From: Escherichia coli
GTDB lineage: Bacteria > Pseudomonadota > Gammaproteobacteria > Enterobacterales > Enterobacteriaceae
Direction: 5' to 3' (one strand)
DNA length: 64,000 nucleotides
Assembly (NCBI RefSeq): GCF_051903065.1
Contig: NZ_CP178438.1
In this document: positions 50,338 to 56,506 of the stretch, one piece after another
How the letters are laid out: every line of letters begins with the position of its first letter
Numbering within the stretch: the first letter of the stretch is position 1
Notes under the pieces: generated by a model
The model's database searches: none
Seen by the model: only the letters and a program-made list of their open reading frames with translations
What the model was told of the DNA's origin: nothing
Translations under genes and position numbers: made by a program

Positions 50338-53013
50338 TTAAGCGGATTTTTTCGCTTTTTTCTCAGCTTTAGCCGGAGCGGCTTCTTTTTTCGCTGCAGT
50401 TTCACCTTCTACATAATCACGACCGTAGTAGGTATCCAGCAGAATCTGTTTCAGCTCGGAGATCAGCGGGTAACGCGGGTTAGCGCCAGTGCACTGGTCA
50501 TCGAATGCATCTTCAGACAGTTTATCCACGTTCGCCAGGAAGTCTGCTTCCTGAACGCCAGCTTCACGGATAGATTTCGGAATACCCAGTTCAGCCTTCA
50601 GCGTTTCCAGCCATGCCAGCAGTTTCTCGATCTTAGCAGCAGTACGGTCGCCCGGTGCGCTCAGACCCAGGTGGTCGGCAATTTCAGCATAACGACGGCG
50701 AGCCTGCGGACGGTCATACTGGCTGAATGCAGTCTGCTTGGTCGGGTTGTCGTTCGCATTGTAGCGAATAACGTTACAAATCAGCAGGGCGTTTGCCAGA
50801 CCGTGCGGAATATGGAACTGGGAACCCAGTTTGTGCGCCATTGAGTGACATACACCCAGGAAGGCGTTCGCAAACGCGATACCCGCGATAGTCGCTGCAC
50901 TGTGAACACGTTCACGCGCTACCGGATTTTTAGACCCTTCGTGGTAGGACGCTGGCAGATATTCTTTCAGCAGTTTCAGTGCCTGCAGAGCCTGACCATC
51001 AGAGAACTCAGATGCCAGTACAGAAACATAAGCTTCCATGGCGTGAGTTACTGCGTCCAGACCACCGAAAGCACACAGGGACTTCGGCATGTCCATAACC
51101 AGGTTGGCGTCGACAATCGCCATATCCGGGGTCAGCGCATAGTCCGCCAGCGGGTATTTCTGACCAGTAGCGTCGTCAGTTACAACCGCAAACGGAGTGA
51201 CTTCAGAACCTGTACCAGAAGTGGTGGTGACAGCAATCATTTTCGCTTTCACGCCCATTTTCGGGAACTTGTAGATACGTTTACGGATATCCATAAAGCG
51301 CAGCGCCAGCTCTTCGAAGTGAGTTTCCGGATGTTCGTACATAACCCACATGATCTTCGCGGCGTCCATCGGGGAACCACCACCCAGCGCGATAATCACG
51401 TCTGGTTTGAAGGAGTTTGCCAGTTCTGCACCTTTACGAACGATGCTCAGGGTCGGGTCCGCTTCTACTTCGAAGAAGACTTCAGTTTCAACGCCTGCTG
51501 CTTTCAGTACGGAAGTGATCTGATCAGCATAACCATTGTTGAACAGGAAGCGGTCAGTCACGATGAGCGCACGTTTGTGGCCATCAGTAATCACTTCATC
51601 CAGCGCGATTGGCAGGGAGCCACGGCGGAAGTAGATAGATTTCGGAAGTTTGTGCCACAACATGTTTTCAGCTCGCTTAGCAACGGTTTTCTTGTTGATC
51701 AGGTGTTTCGGACCAACGTTTTCAGAGATGGAGTTACCACCCCAGGAACCACAACCCAGAGTCAGGGAAGGTGCGAGTTTGAAGTTATACAGGTCACCGA
51801 TACCACCCTGAGAAGCCGGGGTGTTAATCAGGATACGAGCCGTTTTCATTTTCTGACCGAAGTAAGAAACGCGAGCCGGTTGGTTATCCTGGTCAGTGTA
51901 CAGGCAAGAGGTATGACCGATACCACCCATAGCAACCAGTTTCTCTGCTTTTTCTACCGCGTCTTCGAAATCTTTAGCGCGGTACATTGCCAGAGTCGGG
52001 GACAGTTTTTCATGTGCGAACGGTTCGCTTTCATCAACAACGGTCACTTCACCGATCAGAATCTTGGTGTTTTCTGGTACAGAGAAGCCTGCCAGTTCAG
52101 CAATTTTATAGGCTGGCTGACCTACGATAGCCGCGTTCAGCGCACCGTTTTTCAGGATAACGTCCTGAACAGCTTTCAGCTCTTTACCCTGCAATAGATA
52201 GCCGCCGTGGGTTGCGAAACGTTCACGTACTGCGTCATAAACAGAGTCAACAACAACAACAGACTGTTCAGAAGCACAGATTACGCCGTTGTCGAAGGTT
52301 TTGGACATCAGTACAGATGCAACTGCACGTTTGATATCAGCAGTTTCATCAATAACAACTGGAGTGTTACCCGCGCCTACACCGATAGCTGGTTTACCGG
52401 AGCTGTATGCGGCTTTAACCATGCCCGGACCACCAGTCGCGAGGATCAGGTTGATGTCTGGGTGGTGCATCAGTGCGTTAGACAGTTCAACAGAAGGTTG
52501 ATCGATCCAGCCGATCAGATCTTTCGGAGCACCTGCAGCGATAGCAGCCTGCAGAACGATATCAGCCGCTTTGTTGGTGGCATCTTTTGCACGCGGGTGC
52601 GGGGAGAAGATAATGGCGTTACGGGTCTTCAGACTGATCAGCGATTTGAAGATAGCAGTTGAAGTCGGGTTAGTAGTCGGAACGATACCGCAAATAATAC
52701 CGATTGGTTCAGCGATAGTGATGGTACCAAAAGTGTCGTCTTCAGACAGAACACCACAGGTTTTTTCATCTTTATAGGCGTTGTAGATATATTCAGAAGC
52801 AAAGTGGTTTTTGATCACTTTATCTTCGACGATACCCATGCCGGATTCGGCAACGGCCATTTTCGCGAGTGGGATTCGAGCATCTGCAGCAGCCAGAGCG
52901 GCGGCGCGGAAGATTTTGTCTACTTGCTCTTGAGTGAAACTGGCATATTCACGCTGGGCTTTTTTTACACGCTCTACGAGTGCGTTAAGTTCAGCGACAT
53001 TAGTAACAGCCAT
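50338..53013 (-). CDS. adhE: bifunctional acetaldehyde-CoA/alcohol dehydrogenase
   Basis: 891-aa [38 protein letters not shown]. Confidence 0.98.
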
Positions 53014-53489
53014 AATGCTCTCCTGATAATGTTAAACTTTTTTAGTAAATCATCTGCTCGAATACGAGAGTATAGTCAGTGCGGTGATGATTTGCTTAAC
53101 CGATGAAAATCAAAAGCTTACTCGCGCTCACACTCACTGTGATTTACTAAAAGAGTTTAAACATTAGAGTTATTATCTCTAATGCGTCACTTCCAGGTGG
53201 CGTAAGCAAGATTACTCACTTCTGGGTACTGATTACGTGATCCAAATCAAATTTTTGCAAAGCTGACACCTTTCAGCATCGCTTTTCGCCATTATAGCTA
53301 ACAGTTAATAAATTGTAGTATGATTTGGTGGCTACATTAGCATGTTTTGCACAACTAGATAACAATAACGAATGATAGCAATTTTAAGTAGTTAGGAGGT
53401 GAAAAATGCTGTCAAAAGGCGTATTGTCAGCGCGTCTTTTCAACCTTATTTATGGCTAACATTATCCGGCTTTTGCTTCGGAGCTAACC

Positions 53490-54137
53490 GTGATTCAGAC
53501 CCTTTTTGATTTTCCCGTTTACTTCAAATTTTTCATCGGGTTATTTGCGCTGGTCAACCCGGTAGGGATTATTCCCGTCTTTATCAGCATGACCAGTTAT
53601 CAGACAGCGGCAGCGCGAAACAAAACTAACCTTACAGCCAACCTGTCTGTGGCCATTATCTTGTGGATCTCGCTTTTTCTCGGCGACACGATTCTACAAC
53701 TTTTTGGTATATCAATTGATTCGTTCCGTATCGCCGGGGGTATCCTGGTGGTGACAATAGCGATGTCGATGATCAGCGGCAAGCTTGGCGAGGATAAACA
53801 GAACAAGCAAGAAAAATCAGAAACCGCGGTACGTGAAAGCATTGGTGTGGTGCCACTGGCGTTGCCGTTGATGGCGGGGCCAGGGGCGATCAGTTCTACC
53901 ATCGTCTGGGGTACGCGTTATCACAGCATTAGCTATCTGTTTGGTTTCTTTGTGGCTATTGCATTGTTCGCTTTATGTTGCTGGGGATTGTTCCGCATGG
54001 CACCGTGGCTGGTACGGGTTTTACGCCAGACCGGCATCAACGTGATTACGCGTATTATGGGGCTATTGCTGATGGCATTGGGGATTGAATTTATCGTTAC
54101 TGGTATTAAGGGGATTTTCCCCGGCCTGCTTAATTAA
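53490..54137 (+). CDS. ychE: MarC-family (UPF0056) inner-membrane protein YchE; GTG start
   Basis: 215-aa hydrophobic ORF (M)IQTLFDFPVYFKFFIGLFALVNPVGIIPVFISM. Confidence 0.9.
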   Translation: MIQTLFDFPVYFKFFIGLFALVNPVGIIPVFISMTSYQTAAARNKTNLTANLSVAIILWISLFLGDTILQLFGISIDSFRIAGGILVVTIAMSMISGKLGEDKQNKQEKSETAVRESIGVVPLALPLMAGPGAISSTIVWGTRYHSISYLFGFFVAIALFALCCWGLFRMAPWLVRVLRQTGINVITRIMGLLLMALGIEFIVTGIKGIFPGLLN

Positions 54138-54147
54138 TTCCTTTCAA

Positions 54148-54175
54148 ATGAAACGGAGCTGCCATGCTCCGTTTA
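54148..54175 (+). terminator. ychE terminator-like hairpin
   Basis: AAACGGAGC-TGCCAT-GCTCCGTTT perfect stem, followed by ACTTCG (weak U-tract). Confidence 0.45.
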
Positions 54176-54874
54176 CTTCGTCATTATTTTTACTTTGTTC
54201 CCGCGCAGTTATCAAAAGCAAAAGGAATAGGTAAAAATATTCTTCTCAAATTACAGTTAGTTATAAGGATTTCCTTAACTGCTTCTCCTCACCATCATGT
54301 TATTTTCGCCACATCATAATCCTGGGCTTGCTGAAGAATAATTGAAATGATATTAGTAATTCCACTGCCTTTGGTAGAGGAAAGTGCTAAATAATAATCA
54401 ATTGTTAAATTATTGTGCATTTCACTGCTGGAACTGTAATCAGAAAAGATAGACATGCTTAACCAATCTCTATTTGATTGAATTTAAAGATGTTTGTTAA
54501 GACATGGAAGCAAGCTATAGATTCTGATACGGTCAATAAAAGAGAATTGCTTAACAATTTTGCAAAATGTATTGGCGAGTAAGAAGCGCATTTGGTACTT
54601 TCCGGGCAACCGCCAGGCGATTCTTTATTGGTAATGAGAATAATTAACAATTAAAGAGCGTCGCGAAAGAATAATGTGTCTCGACAGGGGAGACACAGTA
54701 CGAATCGACATAAGGTGATCGTCTGAATCACCAGAATAAATAAAGTCGGTGATAGCAATCCGTAACGATAAAGTAACCTGACAGCAGAAAGTCTCCGAGC
54801 CTGTGCAGGGTCCCATTCCGGGATTACACATGCTGGTTAATACCAGTAATTATAATGAGGGAGTCCAAAAAACA

Positions 54875-56506
54875 ATGACCAACATCACCAAGAGAAGTTT
54901 AGTAGCAGCTGGCGTTCTGGCTGCGCTAATGGCAGGGAATGTAGCGCTGGCAGCTGATGTACCCGCAGGCGTCACACTGGCGGAAAAACAAACGCTGGTA
55001 CGTAACAATGGTTCAGAAGTTCAGTCATTAGATCCGCACAAAATTGAAGGTGTTCCGGAGTCTAATATCAGCCGAGACCTGTTTGAAGGCTTACTGGTCA
55101 GCGATCTTGACGGCCATCCGGCACCTGGCGTCGCTGAATCCTGGGATAATAAAGACGCGAAAGTCTGGACCTTCCATTTGCGTAAAGATGCGAAATGGTC
55201 TGATGGCACGCCAGTCACAGCACAAGACTTTGTGTATAGCTGGCAACGTTCTGTTGATCCGAACACCGCTTCTCCGTATGCCAGTTATCTGCAATATGGG
55301 CATATCGCCGGTATTGATGAAATTCTTGAAGGGAAAAAACCGATTACCGATCTCGGCGTGAAAGCTATTGATGATCACACATTAGAAGTCACCTTAAGTG
55401 AACCCGTTCCGTACTTCTATAAATTACTTGTTCACCCATCAACTTCACCGGTGCCAAAAGCCGCTATCGAGAAATTCGGCGAAAAATGGACCCAGCCTGG
55501 TAATATCGTCACCAACGGTGCCTATACCTTAAAAGATTGGGTCGTAAACGAACGAATCGTTCTTGAACGCAGCCCGACCTACTGGAACAACGCGAAAACC
55601 GTTATTAACCAGGTAACCTATTTGCCTATTGCTTCTGAAGTTACCGATGTCAACCGCTACCGTAGTGGTGAAATCGACATGACGTATAACAACATGCCGA
55701 TCGAATTGTTCCAGAAGCTGAAAAAAGAGATCCCGGACGAAGTTCACGTTGATCCATACCTGTGCACTTACTATTACGAAATTAACAACCAGAAACCGCC
55801 ATTCAACGATGTGCGTGTGCGTACCGCACTGAAACTAGGTATGGACCGCGATATCATTGTTAATAAAGTGAAAGCGCAGGGCGACATGCCCGCCTATGGT
55901 TACACTCCACCGTATACTGATGGCGCAAAATTGACTCAGCCAGAATGGTTTGGCTGGAGCCAGGAAAAACGTAACGAAGAAGCGAAAAAACTGCTGGCTG
56001 AAGCGGGTTATACCGCAGACAAACCGTTGACCATCAACCTGCTGTATAACACCTCCGATCTGCATAAAAAGCTGGCGATTGCTGCCTCTTCATTGTGGAA
56101 GAAAAACATTGGTGTAAACGTCAAACTGGTTAACCAGGAGTGGAAAACGTTCCTCGACACCCGTCACCAGGGTACTTTTGATGTGGCCCGTGCAGGCTGG
56201 TGTGCTGACTACAACGAACCAACTTCCTTCCTGAACACCATGCTTTCGAACAGCTCGATGAATACCGCGCATTATAAGAGCCCGGCCTTTGACAGCATTA
56301 TGGCGGAAACGCTGAAAGTGACTGACGAGGCGCAGCGCACAGCTCTGTACACTAAAGCAGAACAACAGCTGGATAAGGATTCGGCCATTGTTCCTGTTTA
56401 TTACTACGTGAATGCGCGTCTGGTGAAACCGTGGGTTGGTGGCTATACCGGCAAAGATCCGCTGGATAATACCTACACCCGAAATATGTACATTGTGAAG
56501 CACTAA
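54875..56506 (+). CDS. oppA: periplasmic oligopeptide-binding protein OppA
   Basis: ORF 54803..56506; start set to MTNITKRSLVAAGVLAALMAGNVALA (signal peptide; 543 aa). Confidence 0.96.
   Translation: MTNITKRSLVAAGVLAALMAGNVALAADVPAGVTLAEKQTLVRNNGSEVQSLDPHKIEGVPESNISRDLFEGLLVSDLDGHPAPGVAESWDNKDAKVWTFHLRKDAKWSDGTPVTAQDFVYSWQRSVDPNTASPYASYLQYGHIAGIDEILEGKKPITDLGVKAIDDHTLEVTLSEPVPYFYKLLVHPSTSPVPKAAIEKFGEKWTQPGNIVTNGAYTLKDWVVNERIVLERSPTYWNNAKTVINQVTYLPIASEVTDVNRYRSGEIDMTYNNMPIELFQKLKKEIPDEVHVDPYLCTYYYEINNQKPPFNDVRVRTALKLGMDRDIIVNKVKAQGDMPAYGYTPPYTDGAKLTQPEWFGWSQEKRNEEAKKLLAEAGYTADKPLTINLLYNTSDLHKKLAIAASSLWKKNIGVNVKLVNQEWKTFLDTRHQGTFDVARAGWCADYNEPTSFLNTMLSNSSMNTAHYKSPAFDSIMAETLKVTDEAQRTALYTKAEQQLDKDSAIVPVYYYVNARLVKPWVGGYTGKDPLDNTYTRNMYIVKH

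Follow-up and report, generated by a model that had tools for sequence, protein, structure and literature searches.

The 64,000-nucleotide stretch of Escherichia coli contig NZ_CP178438.1 analyzed here (hereafter the window) carries adhE on the minus strand, ychE at 53490-54137 and oppA with its ATG at 54875, and the subject of this study is a short hairpin (hairpin 1) in the ychE-oppA intergenic region. This region (54138-54874) is 737 bp long, the length already given in an earlier note on the same DNA; it is 100% identical to that of strain A30 and was found in 5423 of 5426 complete E. coli genomes. Hairpin 1 belongs to a regulatory leader that was mapped by experiment in published work; this is a known system, and the element is not a new gene or terminator. 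In our reading it is probably an RNA stem-loop on the sense strand, within the long 5′ leader of oppA, not a gene, a terminator or a DNA operator, and its role is presumably architectural. What is added here is strong evidence, drawn from a comparison of about 80 species, that two hairpins and the RNase E cleavage motif GA↓AUCGAC (the arrow marks the cut) make up one conserved RNA module, absent from Rfam and from the RefSeq annotation, and a concrete, cheaply testable hypothesis, namely that the loop of hairpin 1 pairs with seed R3 of the small RNA GcvB.

The published oppA numbering was placed on the window by means of the primer and oligonucleotide sequences of Carrier, Lalaouna & Masse 2023 (PMC9988348). 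In that work two oppA promoters were mapped, P1 (+1) and P2 (+246), and pairing with the small RNA MicF was located at +372..+393 by lead-probing and compensatory mutations; the 5′ end at +341 was found in rne-3071 and XRN-1 experiments to be rne-dependent and XRN-1-sensitive and thus not a promoter, whereas Igarashi's group had earlier placed a transcription start at this position, the former promoter 'P3' (as related in the same paper). The T7 template of the '+341' RNA, for which primer EM4528 was used, begins with ATCGACATAAGG (ATCGAC), which places +341 at 54704, and +372..+393 corresponds to AATAAATAAAGTCGGTGATAGC at 54735-54756, complementary to the 5′ end of MicF. A published deletion at +399 starts at 54762, in agreement with both placements. 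The oppA ATG is accordingly +512, and the mature leader that remains after the RNase E cut is 171 nt long. Pairing of GcvB with oppA is put by the literature at the translation-initiation region. The features of the leader are as follows:

54328-54364, plus strand: oppA promoter P1, with -35 TTGCTG at 54328-33, -10 TATTAG at 54351-56 and start A at 54364 (+1); hexamers read from the sequence.
54572-54609, plus strand: oppA promoter P2, with -35 TTGGCG at 54572-77, an 18-nt spacer, -10 TACTTT at 54596-601 and start A at 54609 (+246).
54675-54697, plus strand: hairpin 1, an 8-bp stem UGUGUCUC/GAGACACA with the 7-nt loop GACAGGG at 54683-54689.
54698-54709, plus strand: RNase E-dependent processing site and single-stranded linker, cut between A54703 and A54704 (GA↓AUCGAC); the motif AATCGAC spans 54703-54709.
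54704-54750, plus strand: predicted helix of AUCGAC 54704-09 with GUCGGU 54745-50, from the RNAalifold consensus, enclosing hairpin 2.
54714-54732 (+351..+369), plus strand: hairpin 2, the second palindrome, GGUGAU 54714-19 with AUCACC 54727-32 and the loop CGUCUGA.
54735-54756 (+372..+393), plus strand: MicF pairing site AAUAAAUAAAGUCGGUGAUAGC, from published probing and compensatory mutations.
54872-54887, plus strand: GcvB R1 pairing site over the oppA start codon, from the literature; in our scan it pairs with GcvB nt 67-85 at -10.6 to -12.3 kcal/mol.

Hairpin 1 occupies +312..+334 counted from P1 and +67..+89 counted from P2 (1300982-1301004 in MG1655, where the RNase E cut falls at 1301010). 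Because it lies downstream of P1 (54364) and P2 (54609) and upstream of the cut (54704), it is read as sense-strand leader RNA, and it belongs to the primary transcripts of both mapped promoters. Since the cut is 3′ of hairpin 1, RNase E processing removes it from the mature 171-nt leader, which retains hairpin 2, the MicF site and the GcvB R1 site. The idea of the earlier note would have been refuted had no transcript ended or started near the hairpins; the RNase E-dependent end at +341 does lie between the two.

The sequence of the hairpin region is aataaTGTGTCTCgacagggGAGACACAgtacg. The 7-bp stem that had been noticed is real; its core pairs GTGTCTC (54676-54682) with GAGACAC (54690-54696), ends 7 nt before the GA↓AUCGAC cut and is extended to 8 bp by an additional T-A pair. 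The core end at 54695 and the 6-nt loop GACAGG of the first description needed correction, as the core ends at 54696 and the loop has 7 nt (GACAGGG). The second palindrome GGTGAT-CGTCTGA-ATCACC is present as well, located between the cut and the MicF site, but it begins 17 nt after hairpin 1 and not 25. Folded as plus-strand RNA, hairpin 1 has an energy of -12.2 kcal/mol (z = -4.6), none of 200 shuffles being equally stable, and it also forms when the entire P1 and P2 leaders are folded, the check by structure prediction of the oppA 5′ untranslated region (UTR) that the earlier note had suggested. By sequence alone it is not beyond chance: among 2000 dinucleotide shuffles of the intergenic region, a perfect stem of at least 8 bp with a 3-8 nt loop arose in 8.75%, and one of at least 7 bp in 29%. 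The reality of the hairpin rests on compensatory evolution across genera.

For this comparison, 80 OppA loci from 80 Enterobacteriaceae species were collected, and covariation was counted in 79 sequences, first as aligned by plain MAFFT and then as aligned by fitting to a covariance model. The leader module common to 78 of the 80 loci opens with a variable stem whose loop ends in CAGGG; after a spacer of about 7 nt come the motif (G/A)AUCGACG, another variable stem, an A-rich stretch and GUCGGUGAUAGC. All 7 core pairs of hairpin 1 showed changes on both sides, with pairing cells amounting to 90.1% in the MAFFT alignment and 94.7% in the model-fitted one, and compensatory changes were seen in 5 of the 6 pairs of hairpin 2 (96.7% in the MAFFT alignment and 96.9% after refitting). 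When the partners were slid by 1-3 columns, pairing fell to 30-62%, and the observed covariation score was attained in 0 of 500 shuffles. The regulatory RNA structure suspected in the oppA leader is thus supported, both hairpins being kept by compensatory substitutions in about 79 Enterobacteriaceae. The changes are also informative about the strand, as G·U pairs outnumbered A·C pairs by 63:22 in hairpin 1 and by 77:1 in hairpin 2; a G·U pair corresponds to a C·A mismatch on the other strand, and the excess therefore identifies the selected structure as oppA-sense (plus-strand) RNA.

A covariance model of the module gave exactly one match in each of 81 sources, on the plus strand and upstream of oppA, and no others in the 64-kb window. 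The 101-nt module was present once in 5423 of the 5426 complete E. coli genomes, with at least 99% identity in 5236 of them. A dispersed repeat, of the type of repetitive extragenic palindromes or bacterial interspersed mosaic elements, was rejected in view of this single covariance match and of a median of one place per genome in the 5423 genomes. No feature is annotated in RefSeq beneath the hairpin element, and an Rfam 15 covariance scan of 53000-56000, with E values up to 10, yielded no family for the hairpin module; only chance-level matches were returned (C0299 with 17 bits against a gathering score of 40, E = 7.2; MIR399; ceN106). One of the loci (1170-1272), on a contig labelled 'Chryseobacterium sp. 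18061', has an Enterobacteriaceae-type oppA (84% identity) whose leader module lies about 115 nt farther upstream than that of any other locus; probably the assembly is mislabelled or contaminated and its leader contains an insertion.

Covariation also bears on the ideas that the palindrome is an element of the DNA (an operator, or the promoter formerly named 'P3'), that it arose by chance, or that a small upstream open reading frame (ORF) begins there. There are sequence features that would speak for such a reading, namely a sigma-70-like TTAACA-17-AAGAAT at 54644-54672, the start once mapped at +341 by Igarashi's group, and an ATG at 54674 that overlaps the 5′ arm and opens a 14-codon ORF (MCLDRGDTVRIDIR). 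However, the arms vary in sequence yet stay complementary, the opposite of what is found in an operator, and a chance hairpin is excluded by the covariation. The 'P3' promoter was rejected on account of the rne dependence and XRN-1 sensitivity of +341, and the TTAACA-17-AAGAAT promoter since its start would be near 54680 instead of 54704 and its hexamers are not conserved. The upstream ORF did not hold either, its ATG and frame being restricted to Escherichia while the loop length varies from 7 to 10 nt. We consider this whole group of explanations very unlikely.

A further possibility is that hairpin 1 acts on the opposite strand, where it would be a Rho-independent terminator or mark the place at which an antisense small RNA ends. 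The T-rich tail that the earlier note had described on the minus strand is there (ATTATTCTTT), a consensus scan flags TGTGTCTCCCCTGTCGAGACACA together with TTATTCTTTC as terminator-like on that strand, calling the tail so as well, and the minus-strand hairpin scores -10.9 kcal/mol. Against this, the lax terminator scan that the minus-strand tail UUAUUCUUUC passes found 1 site where 0.9 were expected from shuffles, no gene converges on hairpin 1 from the oppA side, the T-rich tail falls in non-conserved sequence upstream of the stem, and each plus-strand G·U pair would read as a C·A mismatch on the opposite strand. Published Term-seq data (Adams et al. 2021, MG1655, three conditions) list no 3′ end at 1300982-1301010 on either strand and no minus-strand 3′ end between 1299498 and 1301236; plus-strand 3′ ends are listed at 1299498, 1300818, 1300918/21 and 1301236, of which 1300918/21 and 1301236 are the nearest. 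Because Term-seq lists no 3′ end there on either strand, hairpin 1 is not taken to be a terminator. On the plus strand it is followed by AGUACGAAUCG, which has no U tract. The minus-strand terminator implied by the first description is consequently given up; as an explanation of hairpin 1 it is so improbable that we attach next to no weight to it.

With the sense-strand leader hairpin as the preferred reading, its role is best approached from the cut next to it. The motif ATCGAC is invariant in 79 leaders, and the spacer between hairpin 1 and AUCGAC is 7 nt in 46 and 8 nt in 16 of the 80 leaders (7-8 nt in 62 of 80). The predicted AUCGAC/GUCGGU helix reaches over the new 5′ end (54704) and into the MicF site, and 99.8% of its cells pair; as both of its strands are invariant, it lies beyond judgement by covariation. 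RNase E prefers the sequence RN↓WUU, and the GA↓AUC cut fits this preference with a purine at -2, A at +1 and U at +2. We propose that hairpin 1 on one side and the structure made of hairpin 2 and the AUCGAC/GUCGGU helix on the other might act as bookends, which would hold a short A-rich linker single-stranded at a fixed distance and in this way define the RNase E cut. Hairpin 1 would at the same time shield the conserved regulatory module downstream from the variable part of the leader that precedes it, and its conserved loop would offer an exposed recognition surface, for which GcvB seed R3 is the best partner candidate. The RNase E event framed in this manner would create the mature leader and, in Salmonella, presumably also the short form of OppX, the MicF sponge RNA from the oppA 5′ UTR (described by Matera et al. 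2022, Mol Cell, as cited in later papers). Such an architectural role of hairpin 1 appears plausible.

Several observations weigh against it. The apex CUC-GACAGGG-GAG keeps its sequence whereas the lower stem is free to vary, and the 3′ part of the loop, CAGGG, is kept in 75 of 80 leaders; architecture alone leaves this conservation of the loop and of CUC/GAG unexplained. The E. coli oppA RNA used in vitro begins at +341 and thus lacks hairpin 1 (Carrier et al. 2023, PMC9988348). The presence of hairpin 1 in OppX isoforms would follow from lengths of 410, 190 and 109 nt that are reported second-hand, and the fit is approximate, the distance from P2 to the cut being 95 nt in Salmonella diarizonae and the M-S difference 81 nt. 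Finally, four genomes keep a hairpin in the same place with an unrelated loop (CCACGCAA), so the loop motif is not indispensable. These are Enterobacter sp. Ag1, Enterobacter sp. Cy-643, Enterobacteriaceae bacterium RIT693 and Cedecea davisae (DSM 4568), and their hairpin has about 8 bp (GCCGUCGA-CCACGCA-(A)UCGGCGGC) and is located about 215-190 nt upstream of oppA. In Klebsiella and Raoultella the conserved GGGG is drawn into the stem (CCCC-GGACA-GGGG). The loop of the four genomes and the stem of Klebsiella and Raoultella are natural variants that could be used for probing the role of the loop.

The conserved loop might be the recognition site of a protein (CsrA, Hfq, ProQ or ribosomal protein S1) that controls processing or translation of the leader. 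A conserved apex, CUC-GACAGGG-GAG, on a variable stem is typical of protein-recognised hairpins, and ACAGGGGA resembles the core ACA-R-GGA obtained for CsrA by systematic evolution of ligands by exponential enrichment. CsrA binds GGA in a hairpin loop. In the present case GGA occurs in only 55 of the 80 leaders, straddling the loop-stem junction, and is absent from the other 25, among them leaders with loops like UACAGGGU (e.g., Buttiauxella), which departs from the usual CsrA hairpin. A protein site of this kind is on the whole unlikely.

Another explanation, which is compatible with the architectural reading and does not exclude it, is that hairpin 1 mainly presents a docking loop for GcvB seed R3. 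GcvB is an established repressor of oppA through seed R1 at the start codon, and R3 is a validated seed described as conserved; its nt 154-158 are replaced in 'mutR3', it contains the site of the sponge SroC (G160), and it regulates phoP, lrp, panD, ydeE and map. The loop GACAGGG is an exact 7-nt reverse complement of CCCUGUC at nt 152-158 of MG1655 GcvB, which form the core of R3, and R3 is drawn unpaired by Rfam, in the large loop of GcvB stem-loop 4. An unprocessed leader would in this case be engaged through two GcvB seeds, R3 at hairpin 1 and R1 at the start codon, and cleavage at +341 would uncouple them; alternatively, the leader or OppX-type fragments would titrate GcvB.

The pairing was evaluated with an accessibility-aware scan of the P2 leader, in which the duplex energy is combined with unpaired-probability penalties for both RNAs; it replaced plain sliding duplex folding without accessibility, which gave many spurious long duplexes and was uninformative, and it was validated on three published sites. 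The loop/R3 site scored -10.7 kcal/mol, next to -10.6 for the validated R1 site and -5.8 for the next independent site. With MicF as the partner, the same scan put the validated site on top (-13.4 kcal/mol), also recovered the published weak contact of MicF with the Shine-Dalgarno sequence, and gave no site in hairpin 1 within the leader. The loop/R3 score was matched by 0 of 5000 random 7-mers, by 0 of 40 shuffled GcvB sequences and by 1 of 105 loop permutations, which was the loop itself. With E. coli GcvB as the partner throughout, the site ranked first in 33 of 79 leaders, second in 21 and among the top five in 70; likewise, 76 of 80 loops can form at least 6 bp with E. coli R3, and the loop variants A-to-G and C-to-U keep the pairing through wobbles.

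There are considerable points on the other side. The loop lies 186-192 nt upstream of the ATG (about 185 nt), whereas known R3 sites are at ribosome-binding sites, and 7 bp inside a 7-nt loop would be sterically strained. The complementarity was spotted post hoc after several small RNAs had been inspected. CCCUGUC is also found in the 3′ part of OmrA/B, and MicF contains ACCCCU. E. coli GcvB served as the partner for all genera, and the CCC of R3 is less conserved family-wide in the Rfam consensus. In published work gcvB deltaR1 equals delta-gcvB for OppA-LacZ, which suggests that R1 is required, and the GcvB literature lists oppA as an R1 target with no R3 site reported, in a search that did not take in chimera tables from RIL-seq (sequencing of interacting RNAs after their ligation) and several key papers. 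Pairing with R3 also leaves the conserved CUC/GAG top of the stem unexplained, and the four genomes named above carry a different loop. Docking of R3 as the main function is for these reasons possible but doubtful. The specific version, in which hairpin 1 would be a conserved kissing-loop dock for R3, oppA would be a dual-seed (R1 + R3) target only while the leader is unprocessed, and the message would lose the R3 site through the RNase E cut, which falls 14 nt downstream of the loop, is put forward tentatively from complementarity. If it were true, detached leader fragments, or the longer Salmonella OppX forms, could titrate GcvB as well as MicF, and the pairing could bear on the unexplained requirement for GcvB in MicF-mediated oppA activation.

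Downstream of the cut, GUCGGUGAUAGC in the MicF site has zero mismatches in all but a handful of 78 leaders. In the RNAalifold fold of the whole leader, the invariant GGUGA of the MicF site (54748-54752) can pair with UCACC in oppA codons 4-5 (54885-54889), inside the GcvB R1 region; this helix shows no covariation because both partners are invariant. By connecting the MicF site with the region of translation initiation, this predicted long-range helix might have a bearing on activation by MicF. In E. coli, the segment 54748-54753 of the MicF site can alternatively pair with the 3′ arm of hairpin 2 (54727-54732).

Upstream of hairpin 1, the P2 promoter is itself conserved. Of 79 leaders from other genera, 60 contain the block TTGrTACTTTCCGG with no more than 2 mismatches, and most genera keep the length of about 95 nt from P2 to the cut along with the promoter block. 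Two plus-strand Term-seq 3′ ends, at 54611 and 54614 (MG1655 1300918/1300921), are located 2-5 nt from the P2 start at 54609 with no obvious preceding terminator hairpin; they may stem from P1 transcripts that run as far as the P2 promoter complex, or from processing. Between P2 and hairpin 1 there is one more conserved element:

54630-54648 (P2 +22..+40), strand unassigned: conserved block GGTAATGAGAATAATTAAC with the core ATGAGAAT, in the apex of the first hairpin predicted for the P2 leader.

Conservation of the core ATGAGAAT across genera is 90% or more, and the palindrome GGTAATGAGAATAATTAAC agrees with the classical Fur box at 15 of 19 positions; only two positions of the 64-kb window attain this score. 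Judged from the sequence, the block could serve as a binding site for a transcription factor (Fur or Lrp), or it could be the conserved loop in the leader's first hairpin.

Near P1, MG1655 (U00096.3) carries the insertion sequence IS5 (insH21, 1299499-1300693) at CTAA 54387-54390, 24 nt downstream of the promoter, and the window is without this insertion; beyond IS5 the two sequences are collinear, with MG1655 positions obtained by adding 1,246,307 to those of the window, and both hairpins are identical. A published plus-strand Term-seq 3′ end (1299498) coincides exactly with the MG1655 IS5 junction, so P1 transcripts seem to stop at the insertion sequence in that MG1655 stock. On the minus strand, a 98-aa 'hypothetical protein' (WP_001211512.1) is annotated over P1-P2 (54295-54650) in many RefSeq E. 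coli genomes; in the window its frame is split by a stop codon into ORFs of 53 and 63 aa, and it is probably a spurious call across the oppA leader. At the ychE end of the intergenic region, a perfect 9-bp hairpin (AAACGGAGC-TGCCAT-GCTCCGTTT, 54151-54174) is situated 14 nt past the ychE stop codon. It is likely the ychE terminator; as its T run does not directly adjoin the stem, it escaped the terminator scan. The 17-codon small ORF ychT (b4771 in MG1655; MLSKGVLSARLFNLIYG) is found at 53406-53459, just upstream of ychE.

Hairpin 1 can finally be set beside known systems. With a Rho-independent terminator it has in common a G+C-containing stem-loop and a T-rich minus-strand flank; it differs by the missing plus-strand U tract, by the absence of a mapped 3′ end and by a flank that is not conserved. 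With the E. coli oppA leader of Carrier et al. 2023 (PMC9988348) it shares the locus itself, hairpins 1 and 2 being +312..+334 and +351..+369 of that leader; hairpin 1 is undiscussed in the main text and supplementary legends of that paper, and the words 'hairpin' and 'stem-loop' do not appear in its main text. A third comparison is with GcvB targets that need both seeds. The published targets gdhA, cstA and sucC require R1 and R3 (Miyakoshi et al. 2015, 2022 for the R3/SroC systems), and hairpin 1 resembles these and the SroC sponge in having a loop complementary to the same accessible GcvB nt 152-163, in an RNA that is already an R1 target. The known R3 sites are at translation-initiation regions and were proven by compensatory mutations, whereas the candidate site in hairpin 1 is about 185 nt upstream and in a hairpin loop. 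Should the pairing be real, oppA would join the dual-seed GcvB targets, and RNase E processing of the leader would be linked to small-RNA sensitivity and to cross-talk among MicF, GcvB and the leader.

A close known system outside E. coli is OppX, which is reported as a stable Hfq-associated small RNA of Salmonella. It derives from the homologous oppA leader, and the MicF site, AUCGAC and both hairpins are conserved in Salmonella enterica subsp. diarizonae. The two systems differ in that E. coli K-12 yields no stable leader fragment with a published MicF-site probe, and MicF activates oppA translation instead. Of the small transcript surmised at this locus, it therefore holds that nothing is entered in RefSeq or Rfam and that OppX arises from the same leader in Salmonella, but a stable fragment is not seen with that probe in E. 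coli K-12. To go by the reported isoform lengths, hairpin 1 would be expected only in the longer Salmonella OppX forms. As to the oppA leader/OppX-type class, hairpin 1 has the corresponding sense-strand location in the 5′ UTR downstream of the promoters, and the leader to which it belongs carries the MicF site.

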